Counted from the stretch's first letter, positions 22,233 to 59,531 are shown. The stretch: DNA of 64,000 nt from Myxococcota bacterium (GCA_965140415.1 OZ223209.1:3936001-4000000), one strand, 5' to 3'. A program made the numbers and translations. Notes: generated by a model from the letters alone, not told the origin.

Positions 22233-23633
22233 GTGAAGGTATTACTAGTCAATCCGCCGCGCCTTGCTCCAAAGGAGATGGCCAAAAAGGTCCATGCACC
22301 ACAAAACCTGCTGTACCTTGCAACCAGCCTTGCCCAAAAAGGTGGGGAGGTGTCGATTCTGGATGCCAATGCGGAAAACCTGAATGAATCCGGCATTATC
22401 CAACGCATTGTGGACAGTGATGCAGAACTGGTCGGTTTCCCGGTCTTTTCGGATATTTTACATCCGACGGCGAAATTGATCGCCGCCACCCGGTCACGCT
22501 GCCCGGACATCAAGATTCTGCTTGGCGGCATTCACGTCACCGCAATACCGGAGCAAACCGCCCAACAAATCCCCCAGGCGGACTATCTACTTTCCGGCTA
22601 TGCGGAAGACAGCATCTGTCAATTGGTACAAGTCCTTGAAAACAATAGCAACCTGGACGAGATCGCCGGGTTGACCTATCGAAAAGACGGGCAAATCCAC
22701 ACCAGCCGCGTCGGTTCAACCTGCCCGGATGTCAACGCCTTGCCAATCGCCGACCGTAGTTTTGTACGAAAGCATATCGAGTCCGGGCGCTACTACCAGA
22801 TCTTCAATACACTGCCTTTCGACAGCATCGTAACGGGTCGCGGCTGCCCGCACCACTGCCACTTCTGTTACAATTCGGTGCGGGATCGCGTCCTGCTGCG
22901 TTCGGCGGAAAGCATTTACGAGGAAATCCTGTTGCGTTACCGCGAGGGAGTCCGTTTTCTGGATGTGGACGACGACAACTTCATGGTCAATCGAACCCGT
23001 GCCCGGAAAATCTTTTCCTGGATTCTGCGCGACAATTTAAAGTTACAGCTTTTCGTAAAATCCCGTACAGACACCATCGACAAGGAAATCCTGCAACTCG
23101 GGCGCAAAGCCGGAGTGAACATGATCAGTTTCGGCATCGAGTCCGGTTCCCAGCGAATGCTCGATGCCATGAATAAAGGCACCACGGTGCAGCAAAATGC
23201 ACAAGCCATCGCTCAAGCCCGCCGCCTGGGCATGTACGTACATACCGGCTTCTTCATCGGGTATCCAGGGGAAACACGGGAAACGATCAGTCAAAGCATT
23301 GCGTTCGTGCAGCGAAGCAAGCCGGATGCGTTCTCTGTCGATATTCTGAAACCCTACCCTGAAACCGTTGTGTATCGACAAAGCCAGCAAGAAGGCAATC
23401 TCATCGGAGACTGGAACGCAGAAAATCCCCAATGGCCGTGGGTCAAGCTGCCTTGGACGGCGAGTTACGAAGATCTGCTGAAAGAACGGTATCGTTTCCT
23501 GCGGCAATGCTATCTACGCCCTCATTATGCCTTTTCACTGCCTGCGCAAATTCTGCGAACCGCAAATCTTCGCATGGCGCGCTATGCCACAGAATCCCTG
23601 TTGAACCTCCTTAAAAACCGACTTCCTTTCTGA
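22233..23633 (+). CDS. B12-binding radical SAM protein
   Basis: KVLLVNPP, GGIHVT, GRGCPHHCHFC, DDDNF, GIESGSQRML, FFIGYPGET. Confidence 0.93.
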   Translation: MKVLLVNPPRLAPKEMAKKVHAPQNLLYLATSLAQKGGEVSILDANAENLNESGIIQRIVDSDAELVGFPVFSDILHPTAKLIAATRSRCPDIKILLGGIHVTAIPEQTAQQIPQADYLLSGYAEDSICQLVQVLENNSNLDEIAGLTYRKDGQIHTSRVGSTCPDVNALPIADRSFVRKHIESGRYYQIFNTLPFDSIVTGRGCPHHCHFCYNSVRDRVLLRSAESIYEEILLRYREGVRFLDVDDDNFMVNRTRARKIFSWILRDNLKLQLFVKSRTDTIDKEILQLGRKAGVNMISFGIESGSQRMLDAMNKGTTVQQNAQAIAQARRLGMYVHTGFFIGYPGETRETISQSIAFVQRSKPDAFSVDILKPYPETVVYRQSQQEGNLIGDWNAENPQWPWVKLPWTASYEDLLKERYRFLRQCYLRPHYAFSLPAQILRTANLRMARYATESLLNLLKNRLPF

Positions 23634-23731
23634 ATTCCAAGCGCGAGCACATCACCCCAAGATAATCATTGCCTACTCACCGTGATTGTGAGAAAAATGA
23701 CGATGAACGTGATACGAATTGATTCGAGCAC

Positions 23732-24787
23732 TTGCTGAACCGGAAACGAGAAGGAAGCGGTGTTGTCTTGAAATTGAACGTCTTACGAAAACTCGGACGA
23801 GAAGCAAAAGTTGCCGCCCGCATTCTGGAAAGCCACTACTGGGGCAGCAAACGCCCCCTGTTCGTCAGTTGGGCGATTACCAGTCGTTGCAACATGCACT
23901 GCCGCTATTGCGATACGCATGAGTATCATGGCAAAGAACTCCCACTGGGAATCAACCTGTCGCTGGTCGATCAGATCGCACAGGCAGAGACGTACTGGCT
24001 GCATTTCACCGGCGGAGAACCGCTGATCTATCCGGGAATCGAGAAAATTTTCAAACGCGCCTGGCAACAGGGGTTGCGCACAACGTTGGGCAGCAACGGG
24101 CTGCTCGTTCCAGCCAAACTCGATGCGCTGCAATACGTTCACAGTCTGTCGCTTAGCCTCGACGGTCGCCGCGAAATCAACGACGAGCTACGAGGCCAAG
24201 GCGCCTACGACGCCACCTTGCAGGCAGCAAAACTCTGCAAGCAAAACGATATCCCGATCAAGTTCACTGCCGTCTTGACCAAGCACAACTTGCAGGAAAT
24301 CGACTTCGTACTGGATATCGCATCGCAATTCGAGGCAAGAGTCACCTTTCAACCCGCTCACGAAAAGAAATTGTGGAGCGATCAATCCAACCCGACCCTA
24401 CCCGATCTGGGATTGTACCGGGATGTCATCGATACCTTGATCGAGCGGCGCAAGCAGAATCAACCTGTTGGAAACTCCATCGCAGCACTGGAACACCTGC
24501 GACATTGGCCGGAACCGACTCCCCGCACCTGCGTGGGCGGAGTGATATTCTGCCGATTGATGCCCAACGGCGACGTTCTTCCTTGCCTGCGGGCGGAGAA
24601 GGAACACACCTCGAAACTCAATGCAACACAATTGGGTTTCAAACGAGCCTTTTTGGGAGTGGACAGCGTCTGGTGTCATAACTGCTGGGCCAGTGCCCTG
24701 GTGGAAGCCTCACTGGTACTCGATTTGAATTTCGACAGTTGGATCAAAGCGGCAGACGGTCGCCTGGTGGAACACTTTCACAAATGA
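23732..24787 (+). CDS. Radical SAM protein with C-terminal Cys-containing (twitch/SPASM-like) domain; start may be 23768
   Basis: ITSRCNMHCRYC, FTGGEP, SLDG, C..G....PNGDVLPC, CHNCW. Confidence 0.9.
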   Translation: MLNRKREGSGVVLKLNVLRKLGREAKVAARILESHYWGSKRPLFVSWAITSRCNMHCRYCDTHEYHGKELPLGINLSLVDQIAQAETYWLHFTGGEPLIYPGIEKIFKRAWQQGLRTTLGSNGLLVPAKLDALQYVHSLSLSLDGRREINDELRGQGAYDATLQAAKLCKQNDIPIKFTAVLTKHNLQEIDFVLDIASQFEARVTFQPAHEKKLWSDQSNPTLPDLGLYRDVIDTLIERRKQNQPVGNSIAALEHLRHWPEPTPRTCVGGVIFCRLMPNGDVLPCLRAEKEHTSKLNATQLGFKRAFLGVDSVWCHNCWASALVEASLVLDLNFDSWIKAADGRLVEHFHK

Positions 24788-26259
24788 TGACATTGAGATC
24801 AAAACTCCGCTTCACTCGCTCTGCTAAATCCGATGTTTCCGGGCATCCACTGGCGGTGTTTATCCGCGTGCCTTCCTGGCTAGGGCGCACGGAGCGCCAT
24901 CCGGAAAACTGCGAAGCACCCATCGATTTAGGAATCGCTGCCGCTCTCGTGGAGCAGGATGGCTGGTGGGCGGACATTCTGGATCTGGAAACGGGCAGCT
25001 ATACTCTTGAATCGGTTCGCACCTGGTTTACGCTTCACCAGCCGGAACTGGTCGTGCTTAGCGGCATTACTCCTGCGGCTGAAAACATGCTGCTTTTAGC
25101 GAAAACGGCGAAAGCGATCAAGCAGGATTGCTGCATCATCGCCTGTGGCCAACATGCCGATGCCCTGCCTGAATCGCTGCTGTTCGAGCAGTCGCCAATA
25201 GACCTGTGCGCCAAAGGCGAATTCGAGGAAACAATTCGCGATCTGGCTCGTGCATTGTGCACAGACGCGACGATTACGGTTGCAGGAACCCGCTCGTTTC
25301 GCCAGGGAAAGGTCGTCACGCATGGACGTCGCCCGTTGATACAAGATCTGGATGCCCTACCCTTTCCCCTGCATCGCTTTTTTCTGAATCGCCATTACCG
25401 CTACCTGCACCCCATGACGTTAGTGGGACGCTATCGCTGGGGATTCATTCAGGGCAGCCGGGGCTGTCCTTACCATTGCCTGTATTGCTCCAAAGCGCTG
25501 CGCACCTCCTTCGGGCATTCTATGCGTTCCCGCTCGGCGGCCAGTATCGTGGCGGAGATACGCCACCTGCAAAGCCAGGGTGTCAATGTACTCGTATTTA
25601 CGGACGATTTCTTCAATCACTCGAAAGAGCGTGTATTGGAGCTATGCGAAGAAATCCGCAGGAACGACATTCGCATCCACTGGACCGCCCAGGGGCGAGT
25701 ACGCCCGACTGACCCGGAACTTTTTCAGGCTATGAAAGTCTCCGGTTGTTCGACGTTCAGCATGGGCGTGGAAAGCGGCTCCCCCCGCATCCTGCAAACC
25801 TTGAAGAAAAAAGCCGAAGCAGAAGAAGCAGTAGCAGCTTTTCGATATGCACGCGAAGCAGGCTTGTTGACCGTCGGTTTTTTCATGGTGGGATCGCCAG
25901 GAGAAACCGAAGACGATTTCCTGCAAACCAAACAATTGCTGCACCGTCTGGACCCGGATATTTTGCAGGTCGCCTTTTTCACCTGCTATCCGGGGGCGGA
26001 AGCTTATCGCCTATATCGTGAGCGCTTACCAGAAGACTGGCGCGCTTTTCAACACTATGAAACCCTAAGTAACCTCAGCGCGGTTTCCGATGAACGGGTT
26101 CGGCAATGGCAACGCAGCCTGTATCGGGATTTTCTGCTGCGACCGAGTTATGTACTGCGCTACTTGCGCCTGAAGCACATCAACCTGCTTCTGAATCTCG
26201 ATACGGAAGGCTTTCTGGCGCTTCAAGCCGCACGTTTTCTTTTTTCGCGAAAATCGTAA
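24784..26259 (+). CDS. B12-binding radical SAM protein
   Basis: ATGA overlap with the upstream stop. CGQHA, GEFEET, SRGCPYHCLYC, GVESGSPRIL, FFMVGSPGET. Confidence 0.92.
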   Translation: MMTLRSKLRFTRSAKSDVSGHPLAVFIRVPSWLGRTERHPENCEAPIDLGIAAALVEQDGWWADILDLETGSYTLESVRTWFTLHQPELVVLSGITPAAENMLLLAKTAKAIKQDCCIIACGQHADALPESLLFEQSPIDLCAKGEFEETIRDLARALCTDATITVAGTRSFRQGKVVTHGRRPLIQDLDALPFPLHRFFLNRHYRYLHPMTLVGRYRWGFIQGSRGCPYHCLYCSKALRTSFGHSMRSRSAASIVAEIRHLQSQGVNVLVFTDDFFNHSKERVLELCEEIRRNDIRIHWTAQGRVRPTDPELFQAMKVSGCSTFSMGVESGSPRILQTLKKKAEAEEAVAAFRYAREAGLLTVGFFMVGSPGETEDDFLQTKQLLHRLDPDILQVAFFTCYPGAEAYRLYRERLPEDWRAFQHYETLSNLSAVSDERVRQWQRSLYRDFLLRPSYVLRYLRLKHINLLLNLDTEGFLALQAARFLFSRKS

Positions 26260-26269
26260 AGGTCACTCG

Positions 26270-27487
26270 ATGCTGCTTCCTCCACAACCCAGACGACGCA
26301 TCGCGATGTCACGGCGTAAATACGCCGCCCTGCTGCAAGCCATGACCGAGCCCGCCGACCCACACGATATCGAACGCTTCGAGTCCCAATTTACTCGCTG
26401 GACTCCCGGCTGCTCCGTATGCGCCACTTCTTCGGGAAGCCAGGCCCTTTCGCTATTGTTGACACATCTTGGTGTACAAGCCGGGCAACAGGTGCTGCTT
26501 CCTGCCTATACCGATGAAAGCGTGATCGGAGTCTTGGGACGCTTACAGCTACAACCGGTATTCGTCGATATCGATCCAGAAACTCACACTATAGACCTCG
26601 ATCTGGCCGCAAAACGAATCGGAAGCGATACGCGAGTGTTGATGGTCACGCATCTGTTCGGCAATCCAGCCGATATGGACGGTGCAATCAAGTTGGCCAA
26701 ACAACATAATCTGCTGCTTATCGAAGACTGCGCCCACGCCATCGGCACAATGGCGGAGGGAAATCCTGTTGGGACGATGGGAGACGGTGCTCTGTTCAGT
26801 TTCAGTTCCACCAAACCTTTCGGTACCTTCGGAGGAGGACTGGCAGTAACGCGCCACCATGACATTGGCCTGAAGATTCGACAGGAGATGCTGGGCAAGT
26901 CGGTGCAACCTACCAAAAAGCTCGTCTCGGAGGTGCTGTTTACAGAATTGATCGATCTGGTTACGCATCCACTGCTTTTCAGTGGTGCGCCTTACGGCTT
27001 GTTGAGGCTATTGGATCGCTTGCAGGTGGAACCGATCGATTTATATAAACACCTACATAACAACATGCCAAAACACACCGATACACAGTGGTCGGCCTTT
27101 CAAGCCCGGCTGGCTATGCGTCTACTCGATTTTCTACCCGCCGACATCGAATTGCGCATTCGGCGCGGCGAAGAAGCAATAATAGTACTGGGAGCGGATC
27201 GGGTTATCCACTCCAACCGTCCCGGCGACAAACCCGTTTTCTACTTTCTTTTGGTTCGCAGTAACAACCGGCGGGCGCTGGCACGCTACCTGCTCAAGCA
27301 TGGCATCGATACCGGACACAGCGTCATGAGGCACTGTGCAACCTTATGGGGCGACGACAAAGCTTATCCGGAAACGGAACGCGCCATCTGCGAAACAATT
27401 CAAATTCCACACCACGAACGCCTTAGTAACGAGGCTTTCGCCCGGATACTGGAAATTACACGTCAGGGAATAGAAGCAACCGATTAG
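26270..27487 (+). CDS. DegT/DnrJ/EryC1/StrS family PLP aminotransferase
   Basis: SSGSQAL, PVFVDIDP, THLFGNPADM, IEDCAHA, FSFSSTK (PLP Lys), GGG. Confidence 0.88.
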   Translation: MLLPPQPRRRIAMSRRKYAALLQAMTEPADPHDIERFESQFTRWTPGCSVCATSSGSQALSLLLTHLGVQAGQQVLLPAYTDESVIGVLGRLQLQPVFVDIDPETHTIDLDLAAKRIGSDTRVLMVTHLFGNPADMDGAIKLAKQHNLLLIEDCAHAIGTMAEGNPVGTMGDGALFSFSSTKPFGTFGGGLAVTRHHDIGLKIRQEMLGKSVQPTKKLVSEVLFTELIDLVTHPLLFSGAPYGLLRLLDRLQVEPIDLYKHLHNNMPKHTDTQWSAFQARLAMRLLDFLPADIELRIRRGEEAIIVLGADRVIHSNRPGDKPVFYFLLVRSNNRRALARYLLKHGIDTGHSVMRHCATLWGDDKAYPETERAICETIQIPHHERLSNEAFARILEITRQGIEATD

Positions 27488-40867: not shown

Positions 40868-42925
40868 TTACGGCTCGCCAGCCGCAGTCACACGCAGTCC
40901 CAGCCAGGCCGTAAATCCTGAAGCGGGATAACCGTGGCGCGGCTGGTAATCGGCATCCAGGATATTGTCCGCTTTCAGCCAAATAGAAAAACCATCGGTG
41001 GGAAGTAAGTCGATCCGCGCATTCCAGACATAGTAAGGGTCCAATTCTCCCCATTTTCCAGTATCTTCATCCTGGTAATCCTGCCCACCTACAGCCTGAA
41101 ACCGGGTGGTCAGTCGCAGCCAGCGAAATGGTTGTTCGCGCAACCCTATAAAACCCTTATGTGTCGGATGATACTCCAAACGGTCGTCCGGCGAGTCCGC
41201 ATTGAGACGCTTGCTATAAAGATAGGCGTACCCGCCTTCCACTCGCAAGCCGAAATCGAAATTGAAGGCTACGTTGGCCTCCGCCCCGGCCAAGCGAACC
41301 CGGTCCACATTCTGAATCTGCGTCGTTCCATCGCCCAATTTGGCTTCTGCAATCAAATCGACCACTTCCGACTCGAACCCTCCAACCTGCAACAAAAACC
41401 AGTCCATAGGCGTCCAGTTCACATCCAGTCCGAAGGTATACGCCGTTTCCGCCGAAAGATCCGGGTTGGTTTCCCGCGTTCCGAACGCACTGGAATAGCG
41501 CTCGCTCAATGTCGGCATACGACCACGCCGTGCCGCAACCAACTCAAGCGTGACATCGGGATGAGGCGACACGTTCACTTCCAATGCCGGGCCGAAAAAC
41601 AGATCCGTTTCCGCTTGCAGGTTGTCCGGCACATCCAGCAGACGCTCCACTTCCGTCAGCAGAGAAAGCGAGGTCGATACGACCCGGTTCCATACGGCTT
41701 CCAGTTCCAACCCGGACGAAAACACGAAGCGCGACAGAGGCGGATCGTCCTCTTCCCCTTCCTCCCGACTCTCGTGTCGATCCTCGCGGGCATCGAACCA
41801 ACTCGAAAAGGAAAGTGCATCGATTCCGGTCGGATGAGCGCGCACGGACAAGTCCAGGCGTCCACCCAAAATGCGGTCGTCGTGAGTGGAAGTAAAGGCT
41901 CGTGGACCATCCTGCGTACTGTAACTGTCGTCGTCGTAACTATCCAAGGTGTTCGACAAGAACGCCCCGTGAAAGGTTTCTTTTACGTGAATGCCGTGAG
42001 CGTATTCTCCGCTATGACTCAGCACCACATTCAAGTCCCGCCAGTCCGACCAGCGCCAGAATCGAGGCGTCCTGGAATAGATGTTTCTAGGAACGCCATA
42101 GGCGCCCTGAAAATAGGTAGCTTCGGCCTGAATACGATGTCCTTTCGCCGGGTCGAGAGAAATTTTCGCCAGCACGTGACCGCCTAGGCGATCCGAGTTA
42201 TCCCGCAGCCCGCCCTTCTCGTTGCGAGCTTCATCAAACGATCTGGACAAACGAAAACCGTTCGAGTGCTCGAAACCGGCGGTTAAAAGGAAGTGAACCG
42301 GCGACAACGTATCGCTCACTGCGAGGGACACCAGTTGATCGTCCAACATCCCGAATTGCAGATTGGCATCCAAAAATGGACCGCTACCCGGTTGCCGGGT
42401 AATAATATTTACGGCTCCCCCCAGTCCGGCGGGTCCATAACGAACACTTCCCGCACCTTTAAGCACCACGATGCGCTCTACAACTTCGGAAGGCACTTTG
42501 CCTAAATCGATCTGGCCGGTATATGGAGCGAAAACCGGCAGACCATCCACCAATACCATCACCTGGCGCTGATCGAATCCCCGCAAAATAAAAGTCTTCT
42601 CTCCACGAGAACCGGTCGATGCCTGAACGGCAGGCAGGCTATCCAATGCATCCACGACTTTTACGGCTCCAAGCTCGCGAATCGACTCGCGATCCATCGT
42701 CTGCACCATGACGCCTTCATGCGGCAGACGTTCGGAACGCACCGTTACCGCTTCGATACTGGCAACATCCTCACCGGATTCCTTTTCGCTTACCTGTGTT
42801 TGATCGAATTCCTCACTTGTTTCTGCTACGGCAACGGATGTGCAGACGATAACCGACATCAAAGCGACGATAGCAGCCATAATGCTTAAGATGCGACTCT
42901 GGAATCCAGGCTTCGTCATCCTCAC
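40868..42925 (-). CDS. TonB-dependent outer-membrane receptor (plug plus barrel)
   Basis: Signal peptide, TonB box EAVTVRS, LRGF..RQVMVLVDG, ERIVVLKGAGSVRYG..GLGGAVNIIT, NPDLSAET, DNILDADY. Confidence 0.92.
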   Translation of the reverse strand: MRMTKPGFQSRILSIMAAIVALMSVIVCTSVAVAETSEEFDQTQVSEKESGEDVASIEAVTVRSERLPHEGVMVQTMDRESIRELGAVKVVDALDSLPAVQASTGSRGEKTFILRGFDQRQVMVLVDGLPVFAPYTGQIDLGKVPSEVVERIVVLKGAGSVRYGPAGLGGAVNIITRQPGSGPFLDANLQFGMLDDQLVSLAVSDTLSPVHFLLTAGFEHSNGFRLSRSFDEARNEKGGLRDNSDRLGGHVLAKISLDPAKGHRIQAEATYFQGAYGVPRNIYSRTPRFWRWSDWRDLNVVLSHSGEYAHGIHVKETFHGAFLSNTLDSYDDDSYSTQDGPRAFTSTHDDRILGGRLDLSVRAHPTGIDALSFSSWFDAREDRHESREEGEEDDPPLSRFVFSSGLELEAVWNRVVSTSLSLLTEVERLLDVPDNLQAETDLFFGPALEVNVSPHPDVTLELVAARRGRMPTLSERYSSAFGTRETNPDLSAETAYTFGLDVNWTPMDWFLLQVGGFESEVVDLIAEAKLGDGTTQIQNVDRVRLAGAEANVAFNFDFGLRVEGGYAYLYSKRLNADSPDDRLEYHPTHKGFIGLREQPFRWLRLTTRFQAVGGQDYQDEDTGKWGELDPYYVWNARIDLLPTDGFSIWLKADNILDADYQPRHGYPASGFTAWLGLRVTAAGEP

Positions 42926-44065
42926 TTACTGCTCCTCTTCAACAAGCTCAGCGAATTCCTTAACCGCCTGTTCGATTTGCTGCAAGAAATCATGTTTCTG
43001 GCTATCAGTGGCAGGGAAACGCAACTCAACCGGGTTGGTATAACCGAGTCTGGAAGTCATATGCTCGACCAATCCAAGCCGAACCGATAACACCCATACA
43101 CCACCCCGCATCGGCAAAGTGCGCGCAAGAACGGGCCAATGCCCTGCTCCCTGACGTTCCACTCGCCCGATTTCATCCACGATGAAAACATCCGCCTGTT
43201 TCTGAGACAACAGATGTTCACCGGCCTGCTGTACGGCGGACTCGTTCAGGCTCCACGCCTTGGGACCATGTTCCACCTTTTTTCGAGCCAGTTCGAAACA
43301 GCTTCCGTCCGGTAACAGTTTAAGATCGTAGCCGATGCGTCGATCAGCCTGCATGGCCGATGGCTGGATGAATCCGCCCACCGACAATCCCCGTGACTGT
43401 AAATGCGTTACAAGATCTTGTAAAAAGCGGCTTTTCCCACTACCGGGTTCGCCCGTCACCACAAACAACATCGCGCTTTTCCGTTTCGCCATCCACACAT
43501 CCAGATTCTGTGCCACTTCATCCGCCAGATCCGCAGCATGAGCGACCATCCGCGCCAGGCGATCCAACATCCCGCGCCGCTCTCCATTGGACTTTTCCTG
43601 CCAACCTTTGATCATTTGCGGCAACAGTTGAATTCCCAAGGCCATTGCCCCGCCTGCCCCCGCAAAACCGACGCGAGAGAAAACCCGCACAAGGAAATCA
43701 GGACTGATCTTGCGCGATAACGCCATGATGAAACTAACGAAAGTCGCTGCTCGTATCACGATAAGCAATCCAACCTGCAACCCATCCAAAGAGATTGGAA
43801 TACCGGCAAATGTTTCGTATTTCTTTCCTAAAAGCAGCCCGCTCATTGCTGCCAGAAAAAGACCGATGAGCCAAAACCGACGATTTCCGATGCTATAGAG
43901 AACGGATCTTTCTGTAAAAGCAAACAAAGTAACGACTAGCAGAAGACCTGCGGTCGCCAACCACAGGTTTTTCGGTGCCTGCAAAACGATTGCAGTGGCA
44001 CCAACGGTCAACAGCAACCACAAGGGACACTGCCGCTCGCGCTTGGGCCTATGAGAGGGCATCAT
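42926..44065 (-). CDS. Fusion of EcfT/CbiQ-like membrane domain and P-loop NTPase (THEP1/DUF2478-like)
   Basis: TM region with ISLDGLQVGLLIVIR, ISPDFLVRVF..VG, ALGIQLLP. Walker A GEPGSGKS, VGGFIQ, RIGYDL, Walker B FIVDEIG. Confidence 0.75.
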   Translation of the reverse strand: MMPSHRPKRERQCPLWLLLTVGATAIVLQAPKNLWLATAGLLLVVTLFAFTERSVLYSIGNRRFWLIGLFLAAMSGLLLGKKYETFAGIPISLDGLQVGLLIVIRAATFVSFIMALSRKISPDFLVRVFSRVGFAGAGGAMALGIQLLPQMIKGWQEKSNGERRGMLDRLARMVAHAADLADEVAQNLDVWMAKRKSAMLFVVTGEPGSGKSRFLQDLVTHLQSRGLSVGGFIQPSAMQADRRIGYDLKLLPDGSCFELARKKVEHGPKAWSLNESAVQQAGEHLLSQKQADVFIVDEIGRVERQGAGHWPVLARTLPMRGGVWVLSVRLGLVEHMTSRLGYTNPVELRFPATDSQKHDFLQQIEQAVKEFAELVEEEQ

Positions 44066-44678
44066 CCAACTCCCTCCTTAAAGCCTGCACACGCAGACCG
44101 AGCCGATATCCCAGCCAACCGGCGACCGCCCCAAACAGGAACGTAAACACCAGCGCCAGAACCAGAGCCCAGACCGCCCATTCATCCCCCAGTTGCAGCC
44201 AACCGGCTCCTCGTTTTAACAGCATGTAGTACATGCGCAGAACATCGATACCATAAATCACACTTGTGAAGAAAAGCCCCTGCCCGATGACCATCACCGA
44301 ATTGACCGCCCCGGCCAGAGAGGCACGTAATGGTCCCAGTTTCCCCGAAGTGCCAGCAATCAGTTCCAGAATCAGCGCTTCGATAAAAATCCCGATCATG
44401 GGCCAGAGAATCGCCACTCCGGGAGAGATGAGCTTTAACAACATGCAAACGACACCCGCCCGTATCATGAGTCCACGCATGGGAAAGATAGTCAATCCTG
44501 CCAGCAGAATCACCGAACCGATGGCAGACATCAACACGCCGGAAAAAGGCACTCGAAGTACATGCAGAAGCATACCCAGAGTAACCTCTAATGAGCCCCA
44601 TAGAGCCCCGAAGACCGTCGCGTAAATCCATACTAGGCTCAAAGGCTTTGCTGACTGGACAACCGCTGTCGATGGCAC
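44049..44678 (-). CDS. ECF S-component-like membrane protein (about 6 TM)
   Basis: 209 aa, almost entirely hydrophobic. FGALWGSLEVTLGMLLH..PFSG and LKLISP..PMIGIFIEALILE. Confidence 0.65.
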   Translation of the reverse strand: MPSTAVVQSAKPLSLVWIYATVFGALWGSLEVTLGMLLHVLRVPFSGVLMSAIGSVILLAGLTIFPMRGLMIRAGVVCMLLKLISPGVAILWPMIGIFIEALILELIAGTSGKLGPLRASLAGAVNSVMVIGQGLFFTSVIYGIDVLRMYYMLLKRGAGWLQLGDEWAVWALVLALVFTFLFGAVAGWLGYRLGLRVQALRRELDDALS

Positions 44679-44813
44679 TTTTTTCCCCTTTTCACGAAAA
44701 CATCGCCAATCAGGGATAACAGCCCCGAGCGATCAGGGTCAAGTTAAATTGCAGGGTAAGGATTGCACTTTAACGGAATAGATCGATAGCCGCTCGTTAT
44801 CCGTAGTAGAAAC

Positions 44814-44841
44814 TTGCGCGTTATGCACAACTGGCTATAAT
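44814..44841 (+). promoter_or_regulatory. Putative promoter for sucCD
   Basis: TTGCGC-16 nt-TATAAT. Confidence 0.45.
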
Positions 44842-44959
44842 GCCTGCATCGACAGGTTTTTAATGACGAGAGCATGCGCAAAGCGGCAGGAAGCGTTGAC
44901 ACGGCGTTTCTCTCTGTTTTGTGCTGATCACGATTCTCTACCAACAGGAGAAAGATCGT

Positions 44960-46132
44960 ATGAAGATCCACGAGTACCAAGCCAAGGAGTTGTTCCGCCG
45001 CTACGGCGTAGCGGTGCCAGACGGAGAAATGGTCGATAAGGTGGACGACGCCGTGAAAGTCGCGGAGCGCATTGGAGCACCGGTTATGGTTGTCAAAGCG
45101 CAGATCCACGCCGGTGGTCGAGGCAAAGGCGGGGGCGTGAAACTGGCGAAAAGCCTGGATGACGTCCGCAGCCATGCCGAAGCGATCCTTGGCATGAACC
45201 TGGTGACCCACCAGACCGGTCCTGAAGGGAAACAGGTCAATCGCCTTCTTGTTGAAGCCGGTAGCGATATCCAGCGCGAATTGTACCTGGGTATGGTGCT
45301 GGATCGCAGTAGCCAGACCATCGCGGTGATGGCTTCTACCGAAGGCGGCATGGAAATCGAAGAAGTCGCCGCCAACACCCCGGAGAAAATCTTAAAGGTT
45401 TTCGCTCCGATTTCCTTTGGTTTGCCCGGTTATCAGGCCCGACAACTGGCTTTCGGTCTCGGGTTGGAAGGCAAACAGGTTGGCCAGGCCGTCAAGCTGA
45501 TTCAGAACCTGTTCAAGATGTTCGTCGAGTTGGACTGCTCCCTGGTGGAAATCAATCCACTGGTCGTCACCGCCGACGATCAACTACTGGCGCTGGACGG
45601 CAAAGTCAATTTCGACGACAACGCCCTGTATCGCCACAAAGATATCGAAGAGTTGCGCGATGCTACCGAAGAAGACCCCATGGAGCTTGAAGCTGCGGAA
45701 CATGGCCTGAGCTACATCAAACTGGACGGCAACATCGGCTGTCTCGTCAATGGAGCCGGGCTGGCCATGGCGACGTTGGATGTCATCAAAGCCTATGGCG
45801 GCGAACCGGCAAACTTTCTGGATGTCGGGGGCGGCGCAAACGCCAAACAGGTGGCCAAGGCATTTACCATTATTCTTTCCGATCCCAATGTGGAAGCCAT
45901 CCTGGTGAACATCTTCGGCGGCATCATGCGCTGTGACGTCATTGCCGAGGGCGTCATCGAAGCGGTAAAAGAAGTAAAACTGAGCGTGCCACTGGTTGTC
46001 CGGTTGTACGGAACGAAAATGGAGGAAGGTCGCCGCATGATCAACGAATCCGGCCTGCCAATCATCTCCGCCGAACGTTTGGACGATGGCGCACGCAAGG
46101 TCGTCGCAGCGGCGAAAGGAGGCAACCAATGA
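44960..46132 (+). CDS. sucC: Succinyl-CoA synthetase beta subunit
   Basis: [54 protein letters not shown]. Confidence 0.98.
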
Positions 46133-56356: not shown

Positions 56357-59248
56357 TTACTCGCAGGTTGCCTTCAGTTCGATCTCGTCGAAACGCCCTG
56401 AATTACCATTGCCATAATGGTACAATTGGATTTTGGAAGCCTGCACCGCCGCGTGATGATAAAACGGCATATCCTGCTGGATCAATCCATCGTCCAGGTA
56501 CACATCTGCCGTTTTCGCATCCCAATCAAACACCAATCCGATTTTAAACCAACGGTTGGCAACACACGTATTCAACGCCACATGTCCATTGGCGTTTTCC
56601 TGTCCTAGGAAAAACTGCAAACCCGTAGTTGTAATATTGAAATGAGCGATGATCTTTTCGTTGTTCTCGGAATCCGGCCCATAGAGCAGAACATAGTTTT
56701 TGAACTGACTGCTGCTCAGGCATTCATCGGTCTGAACCCAGAAGGACATCGCGCATGGCTGGTACGGATTAAAGCTTTTTTGTAAACCATGATAGTGAGC
56801 GCTGCTGACCGTTTTCGTCAATAGCAGGCTATTGTTGCTGCCATCGGCAGCCGTCGAAGAATCGACCTGGGCGGAGAAATCGGTGCCGATTGTCTCCCAG
56901 GCATCCATCGTTCCATCTTCAAACCCATCTCCGCTCCAAGGCTGCGGCGGTTCTACATATTCTGCCGTCACCTCACCAGATGCTAGTGCAGATTCGAACT
57001 GTGACCAGGCTTGCGAATCTTCTTTCAAATAGTGATCCAGCCAAGGCACAATGTATTGCAAAGCTAAAGGAGTCTGAGCGCCTGAACCGATTGTGCTTCC
57101 TTGATGGTTGCTGGGAATAGGTGTTCCGTAGAAACAATGGTCATAGTAATATTCCGCGTTTTCACAAGTAGTCAGTCCAGGACCACTCGGATCGCTATAG
57201 CCGCAGTGATCGCCTTGATCGATCGTCACACGGAACTTTCCTTGGTCACCGGGTAAGTTGTCGTAGATCGGCTCGGAATGAACCACTGGCGGCGTAATGC
57301 AATCCTCACCCGCATCCAAAATCAAAGCCGGAATCGTCACACCCGCAGCAGCATTGATCGGCCACGTACCACTGATCGGATCGGCGTCTGACAAATCTCC
57401 CAATGGTGCGAGAGACACGATTGTTACTGGAACCTGATGATTTCCACTGTCAGCCAATGCATTGGCCGCTGCATTGAAATCCGCTCCCGCACCGGTAGAG
57501 TGTCCCATCAAGGCGGAAGCTTGTCCCACATGCCCATTGAACATGGAGGAGGAATCCGAACCGAGTTGCTGCATCTTGTCCAGCAGGAAATTCAAGTCGA
57601 TGGCATAGGCATCGACATCAATGGTAGCATTCGAACTCAACTTGTTCGCCAAGACCACGATGTATCCTCTCGGCACCAGTTCTTCCCACAGATAGGCATA
57701 ATCCGCGTAGTTTTGCTGATATCCATGTCCGAATACCACAACCGGAAAAACACCGTTTGCCACAGCAGCAGTTGTTCTGGCACTTATAGCCGGATAGCGA
57801 ATCTCGGCAGGAAAGCCGCCACTTCCATATTGGCTGTCATCGAAAACAACACTCGTTTCCCCAATCGCGTATTCGACCGGTTCAAGATCTCCATCAACTT
57901 GATCGCCATCCGCCAGATCACCATCAACCAGATCGCCGTCTACAACATCCCCGTCAACCCAGTCACCATCCGTCAGGTCACCATCGATGAAATCTCCATC
58001 GATCAGGTCGCCATCGACGAAATCCCCATCAATTACATCGCCATCGATCATGTTACAATCCTGCAACTGTTCGAATTCGTCGAAATATCCGACAGAGTTA
58101 CCCGAATAATGCCAGATGTTGATTCGTCCCACCGATTCGGCAGCACGTTTAAAAGAAACTGCAACTTGCTTCAACACACCATCCAAGTAGACATCCAAAG
58201 TCTGGTTTTCCCAGTCCGGTTCGACTTCCACGTGGAACCAGGTGCTTGGCACACACGCACCCAGGTTGTGATAGACAAACGCATCGTCCATCACACGCAG
58301 TTGCCCGGCGTTGATCACGAACCAGAAAAAAGTACCACCGCTATCCATATCGGTAAAGCTGACTCCGCTTTGATAACCTGTCGCTCCTGGACAAGTTTCC
58401 GTGTACACCCAAAATCCGATGCGGCAGGAAGCGCAAGCATCGAAAGAAATGTTTGCACCGCTGTCGTTGCCGTTGTCCTCGTTTTTTTCAAGCCGGAATG
58501 CATGCTCTGTACCATTCGCCCCCAATGTATCAATTGCACTGAGCGTATAGCGGGAATTCGCAGACCAGTCGTCTACATTTCCATCTTCGAAGTCATCACC
58601 AGGATAAGAACAGGAGCAACTACAATCCGGCACCACGAGTTCGTCATCGCCGTCTACCGGCGTGTCACCATCTATCGGAGTATCACCGTCTACCGGCATG
58701 TCACCATCCACCGGAGTGTCACCGTCTACTGGCATGTCACCATCTGCCGGATTGTCACCGTCGACTGGCATGTCACCGTCGACTGGCGTGTCACCATCTA
58801 CCGGCATGTCACCATCCACCGGCATGTCACCGTCGACTGGCGTGTCACCATCTACCGGCATGTCACCATCCACCGGCATGTCACCGTCGACTGGCGTGTC
58901 ACCATCGACCGGCATGTCGCCGTCTATCGGCGTGTCACCATCCACCGGAGTGTCGCCATCTACCGGCGTGTCTCCGTCTACTGGCGTGTCACCGTCCACC
59001 GGAGAGTCACCGTCCACCGGAGTGTCACCGTCGACTGGCGTGTCACCATCCACCGGCGTGTCGCCATCTACCGGCGTGTCGCCATCTACCGGCGTGTCTC
59101 CGTCTACCGGCGTGTCACCGTCAATTGGAGAGTCATTGCTAATTTCCTGATCTCCATCGGAAGGGTTGTCGTCATCCCCACCGGAACAACTTGCAAGCAT
59201 CATCGTGCAACATAATGCGAGAATCCACAACCCCCATGTCGCTCTCAT
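56357..59248 (-). CDS. Large lipoprotein: DGD stalk, lectin-like domain, DGD linker, alpha/beta hydrolase (chlorophyllase/cutinase-like), second lectin-like domain
   Basis: AGGAG RBS before ATG 59248. Lipobox MLAS-C. VVVFGHGY, GHSTGAG, AGEDC, GDHCGY. Two homologous FEDG..W...FWV...DW...DVYLD...FDE domains. Confidence 0.82.
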   Translation of the reverse strand: MRATWGLWILALCCTMMLASCSGGDDDNPSDGDQEISNDSPIDGDTPVDGDTPVDGDTPVDGDTPVDGDTPVDGDTPVDGDSPVDGDTPVDGDTPVDGDTPVDGDTPIDGDMPVDGDTPVDGDMPVDGDMPVDGDTPVDGDMPVDGDMPVDGDTPVDGDMPVDGDNPADGDMPVDGDTPVDGDMPVDGDTPIDGDTPVDGDDELVVPDCSCSCSYPGDDFEDGNVDDWSANSRYTLSAIDTLGANGTEHAFRLEKNEDNGNDSGANISFDACASCRIGFWVYTETCPGATGYQSGVSFTDMDSGGTFFWFVINAGQLRVMDDAFVYHNLGACVPSTWFHVEVEPDWENQTLDVYLDGVLKQVAVSFKRAAESVGRINIWHYSGNSVGYFDEFEQLQDCNMIDGDVIDGDFVDGDLIDGDFIDGDLTDGDWVDGDVVDGDLVDGDLADGDQVDGDLEPVEYAIGETSVVFDDSQYGSGGFPAEIRYPAISARTTAAVANGVFPVVVFGHGYQQNYADYAYLWEELVPRGYIVVLANKLSSNATIDVDAYAIDLNFLLDKMQQLGSDSSSMFNGHVGQASALMGHSTGAGADFNAAANALADSGNHQVPVTIVSLAPLGDLSDADPISGTWPINAAAGVTIPALILDAGEDCITPPVVHSEPIYDNLPGDQGKFRVTIDQGDHCGYSDPSGPGLTTCENAEYYYDHCFYGTPIPSNHQGSTIGSGAQTPLALQYIVPWLDHYLKEDSQAWSQFESALASGEVTAEYVEPPQPWSGDGFEDGTMDAWETIGTDFSAQVDSSTAADGSNNSLLLTKTVSSAHYHGLQKSFNPYQPCAMSFWVQTDECLSSSQFKNYVLLYGPDSENNEKIIAHFNITTTGLQFFLGQENANGHVALNTCVANRWFKIGLVFDWDAKTADVYLDDGLIQQDMPFYHHAAVQASKIQLYHYGNGNSGRFDEIELKATCE
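57884..58048 (-). repeat. 11 x 15-bp coding repeat (xDGDx)
   Basis: IDGDV IDGDF VDGDL IDGDF IDGDL TDGDW VDGDV VDGDL VDGDL ADGDQ VDGDL. Confidence 0.92.
58644..59129 (-). repeat. 27 x 18-bp coding tandem repeat (PVDGD[TM])
   Basis: Uninterrupted 6-aa period, 27 units counted. Confidence 0.95.
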
Positions 59249-59531
59249 CGCGTTTCTCCTTGAATTACTATAACTTCTCAAATTATTAAATTTTTTACGC
59301 TCCCTATACGGTAAATCACAGAAGAAGCCTTTCCCTGCATGGCACACGACATCAATGCAAGGAAAATTGAGTTTACCCATGTTCAACTAATCGGCAGTTT
59401 GTTCTGAATAATCAATAAAATCGTTATTATTCAAAAATGTAGGCAGGGCGAAACACAGTAGAAGAATTGCAGAATACACAAGGTTTGATGTTGCTTGAAC
59501 TTGGTATTGAAATAACCAATGAACCGTTGAG

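Follow-up and report, generated by a model that had tools for sequence, protein, structure and literature searches.

Energy-coupling factor (ECF) transporters combine an S component with a T component that docks into ABC ATPases, and helix 1 of the S component contacts EcfT through a small-xxx-small (AxxxA) motif, as described in PMC11109136; the group I transporters with a dedicated tandem ATPase (YkoEDC-like; Trep_Strep/ABC_cobalt S component with a CbiQ T component) come closest to the system considered here. In the solitary S components BtuM and BioY, the S fold works without the ECF ABC module; in the parts of PMC6072759 consulted, these proteins are placed in Gram-negatives whose uptake of the same vitamin depends on a TonB-dependent receptor as well, the BtuM organisms are given as lacking an EcfT homologue, and facilitated diffusion by toppling is discussed for solitary S components. 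In the BtuB-BtuCDF system, a complex cofactor passes from an outer-membrane TonB-dependent receptor to a nucleotide-dependent importer in the inner membrane, and THEP1 of Aquifex aeolicus (1YE8) and human NTPCR (2I3B) are soluble, stand-alone nucleoside triphosphatases (NTPases) whose role is unknown. Here, we consider a three-gene unit at positions 40868-44678, minus strand, of a 64,000-nucleotide stretch of a Myxococcota bacterium genome (GCA_965140415.1 OZ223209.1:3936001-4000000; the whole stretch is called the window below), which resembles each of these in part. We propose, at a probability of roughly 0.55, that this unit descends from an ECF transporter and forms an uptake route across both membranes, serving as a salvage importer of molybdenum cofactor (Moco) or molybdopterin (MPT), with the Mo (or W) pterin cofactor, Moco/Mo-MPT, or a late precursor as its cargo.

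The unit consists of g1, an ECF S-component-like membrane protein of 209 residues (GTG start, 44678..44049), g2, a T-like domain fused to an NTPase, of 379 residues (ATG start, 44065..42926), and g3, a TonB-dependent outer-membrane receptor of 685 residues (GTG start, 42925..40868), all on the minus strand. The end of g1 overlaps the start of g2 by 17 nt (44049..44065, minus strand), which, judging from the coordinates, suggests translational coupling, and g3 follows g2 without a gap; related loci L002-L005, too, have overlapping or 4-nt ATGA-type junctions. With a convergent S1-domain gene on one side and the divergent sucC/sucD on the other, the operon is confined to these three genes and holds neither an ABC ATPase nor a periplasmic binding protein. 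An earlier note on this DNA, made from the sequence alone, had described three tightly coupled genes without EcfA or binding protein, and both points are borne out by the open reading frame (ORF) coordinates and the flanks; the peptides it had picked out (ISLDGLQVGLLIVIR, ISPDFLVRVF, ALGIQLLPQM, ADLADEVAQNL, GEPGSGKS and FIVDEIG) are all found in g2, and LSGGQ, which it had reported missing, is indeed not found there. The existing annotation of g1 begins at M36 and gives a protein of 174 residues, removing 35 residues of the N-terminus (window 44573-44678) with eight family-invariant positions (F23, A25, W27, G28, L30, E31, T33 and G35); since homologues of 204-209 residues conserve the residues before M36, we prefer the GTG start at 44678. 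The intergenic region upstream of g1, common with the divergent sucC (44679..44920, no strand assigned), is without a riboswitch recognisable by Rfam, and a sigma-70 promoter scan gave a result no better than shuffles.

The AlphaFold2 model of g1 (predicted local distance difference test, pLDDT, 88.1; predicted template modelling score, pTM, 0.81) has the six-helix fold of an ECF S component, and its top Foldseek match in the PDB is the S component YkoE, 5EDL (probability 1.00, TM-scores 0.52/0.55), though at an E-value of just 0.15. TmRibU and ThiT rank after 5EDL, and BtuM, the solitary S component, is not among the top matches shown. This fold match supports the earlier description of g1 as S-like; the Pfam scan assigned g1 itself to no family, and a profile search against PDB sequences gave no matches at E<=10. 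Pfam Trep_Strep (PF09605) is matched by 1 of 10 members of the g1 family (4.5e-7) and is carried by 22-28% of the members of the ESM Atlas clusters nearest to g1, and an NCBIfam scan of the S-like proteins, the ABC-linked ones included, returned no families. The helix-1 motif of g1 is the variant AxxxG (A20-x-x-x-G24), in which conservation of G24 reaches at least 90% and A25 beside it is invariant, and residues 17-26 fall in the predicted interface with g2.

Residues 1-195 of g2 (43481..44065, minus strand) form a truncated EcfT/CbiQ-like T domain of four transmembrane helices, a hairpin, and two coupling helices. It ends after the second coupling helix, unlike the group I T components, without a C-terminal transmembrane segment; the NTPase starts where EcfT would run into its last hydrophobic segment, one that is visible in the canonical CbiQ of the window's genome. 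Homology to EcfT/CbiQ is evident at the level of the family, the window domain itself (residues 18-132) reaching E 0.18 and 14 bits against Pfam CbiQ, under the 25-bit cut-off. A T-domain profile built from six N-domains and searched in 1.84 billion proteins at E<=1e-3 collected a family of 324 representatives (50% identity); of 61 aligned members, 26 match CbiQ in Pfam at E<=0.1 (best 1e-21), and the 61-member profile finds the EcfT chains 5d3m_D (4.5e-6), 4hzu_T (9.8e-5) and 4huq_T (1.1e-4) in the PDB, the match spanning EcfT residues 23-220 of 265 with the last roughly 45 residues missing. Foldseek with the N-domain of the g2 model (pLDDT 80.7) likewise finds EcfT of a folate ECF complex (7nnu_D and 7nnt_D; probability 1.00/0.99, TMt 0.34-0.35), so that profile and fold together agree with the shortened EcfT/CbiQ-like domain the earlier note had seen. 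That note had also found the docking motifs unclear, rightly: where a canonical T component has two Ala-Arg-Gly motifs at the ends of its coupling helices, the window protein has 'ERRG' and 'AKRK'. Its R-G stands at nearly canonical register, with G165 invariant and the preceding Arg in 1 of 6 orthologues. Of the 60 stand-alone T representatives, 11 have the strict x-x-R-G-G motif; none of the 90 fused forms does. T domains linked to ABC genes retain 'A.R.R' and 'ALRG' at the coupling-helix ends, and these are degenerate in the ABC-less window type.

The remainder of g2, residues 196-379 (42926..43480, minus strand), is a THEP1-type P-loop NTPase domain, as had been suspected from its Walker A (GEPGSGKS) and Walker B (FIVDEIG) sequences. 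Pfam places NTPase_1 (PF03266) on residues 201-305 with E 2.5e-18 and 66.9 bits (cut-off 23.9) and DUF2478 on the same domain with E 2.6e-10 and 40.5 bits, and Foldseek matches it to human NTPCR (2i3b, E 6e-8, TMt 0.67) and to THEP1 (1ye8, E 8e-6, TMt 0.63), with which it has the fold, Walker A, and the 'DEIG' Walker B in common. G205, G208, G210, K211, D297, E298, I299 and G300 are invariant in 8 NTPase homologues. At 58 bits against the 156-bit cut-off of the NCBIfam equivalog model PRK13695, it is not an equivalog, and unlike THEP1 and NTPCR it is fused to a membrane transporter subunit. Because Walker A and DExG are kept in most fused representatives (14 of 15 S+T+NTPase and 51 of 64 T+NTPase), the NTPase looks active as judged from these motifs. 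In public annotation, these proteins are just 'nucleoside-triphosphatase' or 'hypothetical'.

The third gene carries the Plug (79 bits) and TonB_dep_Rec_b-barrel (76 bits) domains of a TonB-dependent receptor, both above the Pfam cut-offs. Its best NCBIfam match is TonB-B12 (TIGR01779), at 110 bits against a 600-bit cut-off, and it reaches 84 bits against the 836 of NF007926; with g3 under every NCBIfam equivalog cut-off, it is not a BtuB equivalog. The solved receptors closest to it by sequence are FecA (3e-16) and BtuB, with the match limited to the plug and early barrel. The likeness of the whole unit to BtuB-BtuCDF lies in its layout, and it differs from that system also in having no periplasmic binding protein, type II ABC permease, or ABC ATPase.

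The three genes form a conserved unit and are not side by side by chance. In a genome-contig search, in which a single-protein query gave no matches and an alignment-based query was successful, g1 is directly upstream of g2 with overlapping junctions in all five full-length loci. The best 150 of the 324 T representatives, sorted with our own hidden Markov models, comprise 64 T+NTPase, 60 T alone (some of these rows being fragments), 15 S+T+NTPase, and 11 S+T architectures, S-T fusions thus making up 26 of the 150. Modelling of the g2+g1 complex, which the earlier note had suggested as a check, placed helix 1 of the S-like protein on both T coupling helices with an ipSAE of 0.74, against 0.00 for the best of 3 controls; among solved complexes, 58 of 80 attain that ipSAE mark, and among mismatched pairs 2 of 110, counts that apply only roughly because our own alignments were used for the g2+g1 model. 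Contact agreement between runs was at least 86% and partner pLDDT at least 79. ECF complexes have already been solved, so the pass of this model may reflect likeness to them. The predicted interface joins the coupling helices of g2 (136-156 and 170-192) with helices 1-3 of g1 (12-34, 53-65 and 73-94), and takes in invariant A177, L180 and A181 of g2 and invariant F23, A25 and G28 of g1.

The T profile finds one locus each in 38 of 401 genomes of the window's phylum, and in the phylum of L003 it matches 9 of 301 genomes. Gene contexts were read from 28 fetched genome loci, the genome-contig loci and 40 metagenome loci, which a uniform tally reduced to 40 distinct loci, several of them cut by contig ends. 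In 34 of the 40, an NTPase is fused or adjacent, and of these 34, 17 have an adjacent TonB-dependent receptor, which makes the receptor a recurrent partner, and 4 have an ABC gene within 3 kb; in the 6 loci with no NTPase nearby, these numbers are 1 and 3. For 3 of 4 genomes whose module lacks an adjacent NTPase, one is encoded in trans on another contig, and G305 has none. Unlike BtuM and BioY, the S-like protein of the window's system always comes with a T-like scaffold and an NTPase and is not solitary: of the 40 loci, 35 have a T-like domain beside S or fused to it, S not being detected in the remaining 5 (L051, L089 and L098, all cut by a contig end, L057, and the canonical CbiQ-type L085/L087). 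L057 (L057:7548-8681), from a genome of the taxonomic order to which the window's genome belongs, is a T-NTPase plus receptor locus in which no S-like gene was found upstream at E<=1e-3; its S may be diverged or encoded elsewhere.

The two ABC ATPase domains of an ECF transporter are found neither in the window's operon nor within 3 kb in 30 of the 34 NTPase-linked loci. The other four carry NTPase, tandem ABC-ABC, S, and T together, three of them as ABC-ABC, S, and T-NTPase (L080, L081 and L083, the last with a receptor as well) and one with a separate NTPase (L064), and in all four, T retains both Arg motifs; distant relatives of the same T clade (L062, L085) retain ABC-ABC, S, and T, as in group I. 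At the other end of the range, S, T, and NTPase form single chains without ABC or receptor genes within 6-7 kb (L091, L095, L096 and L118) or within about 7 kb on each side (L084), and in L086 such a chain lies at a contig end with only one side readable. The T-domain tree, from which rows L092, L098, L089 and L051 were left out, has an unresolved backbone; the ABC label changes 2 times on it, and the clade that combines ABC with NTPase is part of a polytomy. An ancestor linked to ABC, with later loss of the ABC gene, is compatible with this tree. In the window type, the ABC gene has been lost and the Arg motifs are degenerate. The earlier note had counted regular occurrence of EcfA ATPases in homologous operons as evidence against its reading, and such operons do exist, as the 4 of 34. 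Since these loci carry both, the NTPase arose, we believe, as an add-on to a complete ECF transporter and not as a simple substitute motor. What the note had called an ECF-derived importer with a different class of NTPase therefore stands as anatomy, and the claim that the NTPase energises it is not supported as worded. Because the NTPase coexists with tandem ABC in relatives and most ABC-less forms have kept it, either fused or in trans, a gate or hand-off chaperone for a labile cofactor seems more likely to us than a pure, like-for-like ABC-type motor; where the ABC gene is missing, as in the window type, both functions may fall to it.

As to the cargo, several hundred organisms are known to have 'orphan' molybdoproteins without a complete Moco pathway (Peng et al., 2018, PMC6147048), for which that study, in the parts consulted, proposes new biosynthetic components or Mo-independent enzymes and not uptake; most organisms are generally held, according to a passage in PMC9026282, not to take up Moco. 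The window's genome has this genotype: MoeA_N, MoCF_biosynth, MoaC and MoaE were not found in it, nor MoaA above cut-off, and it retains molybdopterin-enzyme domains, a full-length MobA-like gene, and XdhC beside a second NTP_transf_3 gene. ThiC is present, so its organism is not auxotrophic for cofactors in general. A molybdopterin oxidoreductase frame (PF00384 + PF01568) at G000:C1:5908182-5910020 of this genome contains one in-frame TGA and may, by its sequence, encode a selenocysteine formate-dehydrogenase-type enzyme.

The 401 genomes searched for the T module also served for all phyletic tests. MoaC is absent in 68 of them, and the module is present in 32 of these 68 compared to 6 of the 333 MoaC-bearing genomes, 3 of the 6 being the weakest T hits; MoCF_biosynth is absent in 20 genomes, with the module in 16. 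The MoCF_biosynth domain also occurs in CinA-type proteins. If 'no synthesis' is defined as MoaC-negative with at most one MoCF_biosynth hit, which leaves 41 genomes, and molybdoenzyme presence as PF01568 at E<1e-10 or PF02738, a molybdoenzyme family is present in 25 of the 26 genomes with the module and in 2 of the 15 without it. The 25 are made up of 11 genomes by PF01568 (E<1e-10), 10 genomes of family f48 with 2-4 PF02738 each, and 4 more. The sole module genome without a molybdoenzyme (G036) is 86% complete, the two module-less genomes with one (G223 and G378) are 82% and 81% complete, respectively, and three further module-less genomes have PF01568 matches that are weak only. Four genera (g54, g117, g58 and g64) hold both states, always in the same direction. 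MoaE was found in none of 13 module genomes tested, and full-length MobA-like genes in 9 of the 13, namely those with dimethyl sulfoxide (DMSO)-reductase-type enzymes; the sulfite-oxidase family was found in 0 of 13 in f48. The sole physical link to Mo is in L031 (G273), where a MobA-like gene stands directly upstream of S-T on the same strand. The module thus tracks the loss of Moco synthesis, and the phyletic patterns point to Moco rather than a corrinoid; a salvage route for a finished or nearly finished pterin cofactor fits this pattern, and a molybdate importer does not.

These considerations lead us to the following scenario for a route that would serve bacteria keeping molybdoenzymes without de novo Moco synthesis. 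The TonB-dependent receptor, going by its family, would bring the cofactor, free or from a carrier, to the periplasm, where g1, going by its fold, would bind it. Next, g1 might dock by helix 1 (A20-x-x-x-G24) onto both coupling helices of g2, as in the complex model and as the natural S-T fusions suggest, and then, by analogy with ECF transporters, topple to release its cargo inside. The NTPase, tethered after the second coupling helix just where canonical EcfT docks into the ABC ATPases, would be the nucleotide-dependent element of this cycle. Finally, the retained MobA-like, MocA-like, and XdhC proteins, whose genes are present, perhaps finish the cofactor and insert it into apo-enzymes. A bolder version, to which we give somewhat less than even odds, is that this would be the first dedicated bacterial importer of the Mo/W pterin cofactor (Mo-MPT or metal-free MPT), an ECF S/T pair shed of its ABC ATPases in which a THEP1-type NTPase fused to T drives or gates the S-T cycle and also passes the labile cofactor to MobA, MocA or XdhC. 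Our literature search turned up neither an S/T-THEP1 system nor a Moco importer in bacteria; supplementary tables of PMC6147048 may list the same lineages.

A number of points weigh against the Moco reading. The S fold of g1 has moderate support (Foldseek E 0.15, TM-score about 0.5). A ModA-like protein (73.7 bits) persists in the window's genome; one would not expect it there if the metal came in with the cofactor, and its presence would fit import of metal-free MPT. Module and MoaC occur together in G003 and G215, and MoaC taken alone separates the genomes less cleanly, many of the 36 module-less MoaC-negative genomes having PF01568 hits; the rule of at most one MoCF_biosynth hit was set post hoc, allowing for the CinA-type proteins. 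One phylum was tested, and its related genomes are not independent. The control pathway is ThiC alone, in the window's genome alone, so these lineages may yet be general cofactor auxotrophs. None of the 39 neighbour ORFs scanned by Pfam (chosen among 155 candidates from the first 23 loci and further ones from later loci) is Mo-related, and Rfam over the window and 31 related loci gave just tmRNA and tRNAs, with no Moco riboswitch. Free Moco is oxygen-labile and chemically labile, and THEP1-family proteins are not known to have a cofactor-handling or motor role.

The explanation closest to the earlier note is that the THEP1-type NTPase replaced the ABC ATPases as the motor of a receptor-fed importer of a corrinoid or metal-chelate. 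The ABC-less operon and the 30 of 34 NTPase-linked loci like it speak for such a motor, as do the fusion point exactly after the second coupling helix, the degenerate Arg motifs of the ABC-less forms, the conserved Walker motifs, and the five single chains that have neither ABC nor receptor genes nearby. Set against these is the coexistence of NTPase and tandem ABC in four loci, by which the two are not functionally redundant; a single monomeric NTPase, moreover, presumably cannot copy the clamp of an ABC dimer. The corrinoid had been suggested by B12 enzymes nearby, and these turn out to be B12-binding radical S-adenosylmethionine (SAM) genes about 18 kb away behind unrelated genes; an upstream riboswitch survey, also proposed in that note, gave no matches in the whole window at the Rfam gathering score, none at E<=10 in 44500-45100 upstream of g1, and no cobalamin riboswitch in the 31 related loci. 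With the receptor far under the BtuB cut-offs in addition, we have rejected corrinoid as the cargo, and we regard the explanation as a whole as unlikely. One may also ask whether the two canonical CbiQ loci with ABC ATPases in the window's genome (CbiM-CbiQ-CbiO, and elsewhere a second CbiQ + ABC pair at 4.286 Mb, the candidate partner) lend an ATPase in trans to S and T-NTPase, leaving the NTPase only a regulator. ABC-linked relatives do exist; yet the Arg motifs for ABC docking are not conserved in window-type orthologues, the window's genome has no orthologue of the tandem ABC (best match 35% identity to half of the query), and the single-chain forms stand alone, which together make this improbable.

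Two further explanations concern the cargo. Import of the metal itself, as molybdate or tungstate, would share the phyletic link to molybdoenzymes, but molybdate is useless without MogA and MoeA, the module is concentrated where MoCF_biosynth and MoeA_N are absent, the window's genome already has its ModA-like protein, and organic micronutrients, not free oxyanions, are what S components and TonB receptors usually transport; we consider it very improbable. Alternatively, the cargo could be some other micronutrient, and the link to Moco loss a side effect of how cofactor-scavenging lineages live or of their common descent. The 10 of 26 module genomes that come from f48 alone, the single-genome ThiC control, the missing Moco riboswitch, and neighbours that are almost never Mo-related all leave room for this. 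The pattern, however, is specific to Moco, molybdoenzymes being gone in 13 of 15 module-less genomes and kept in nearly all module-bearing ones, and the four within-genus flips and the adjacent MobA-like gene of L031 point the same way, so that we hold this explanation, too, to be quite unlikely.

If Moco or MPT salvage is indeed the function, the importer would explain the several hundred 'orphan molybdoprotein' organisms of PMC6147048, and the THEP1/NTPCR family would gain its first cellular role. Genomes with molybdoenzymes and no Moco pathway are acknowledged as a puzzle in that source, and a conserved, widespread gene set here tracks that genotype. Irrespective of the cargo, the family presents an ECF-type S/T pair that does without the ABC ATPases by which such transporters are defined, the intermediates with both ABC ATPases and the new NTPase bear on energy coupling in ECF transporters, and the uncharacterised THEP1/NTPCR NTPases obtain a concrete context.

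Lastly, some observations concern the surroundings of these genes. The second CbiQ with its single ABC gene in the window's genome (L065, G000:C1:4284825-4288406) is preceded by a SAM methyltransferase gene, which is not a recognisable S component. The sole recurrent neighbour in the Pfam scan is a META-domain gene directly 3' of two S+T+NTPase single-chain fusions (L095:2363-2845 and L118:8104-8601), and in L091 a DUF364/DUF4213 'heavy-metal chelation' gene lies directly 5' of such a fusion. In two genomes of one genus, a conserved ORF of about 629 residues stands between T-NTPase and the TonB receptor (L052:5519-7405 and L053:5540-7423, the latter copy of 628 residues); Pfam found no family for the L052 copy, and the ORF may be a further component of the system. 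Within the window itself, the two B12-binding radical SAM genes belong to a cluster at 22233-27487, together with genes for one more radical SAM enzyme and for a DegT-type aminotransferase, next to a DUF362/ferredoxin protein and a YfhO-like membrane protein on the other strand; this looks like a small modification or biosynthetic cluster unrelated to the uptake unit. At 56357-59386 (minus strand), a protein of 1009 residues combines Cementoin-type repeats near its N-terminus with a PET-hydrolase/chlorophyllase-like alpha/beta-hydrolase domain.

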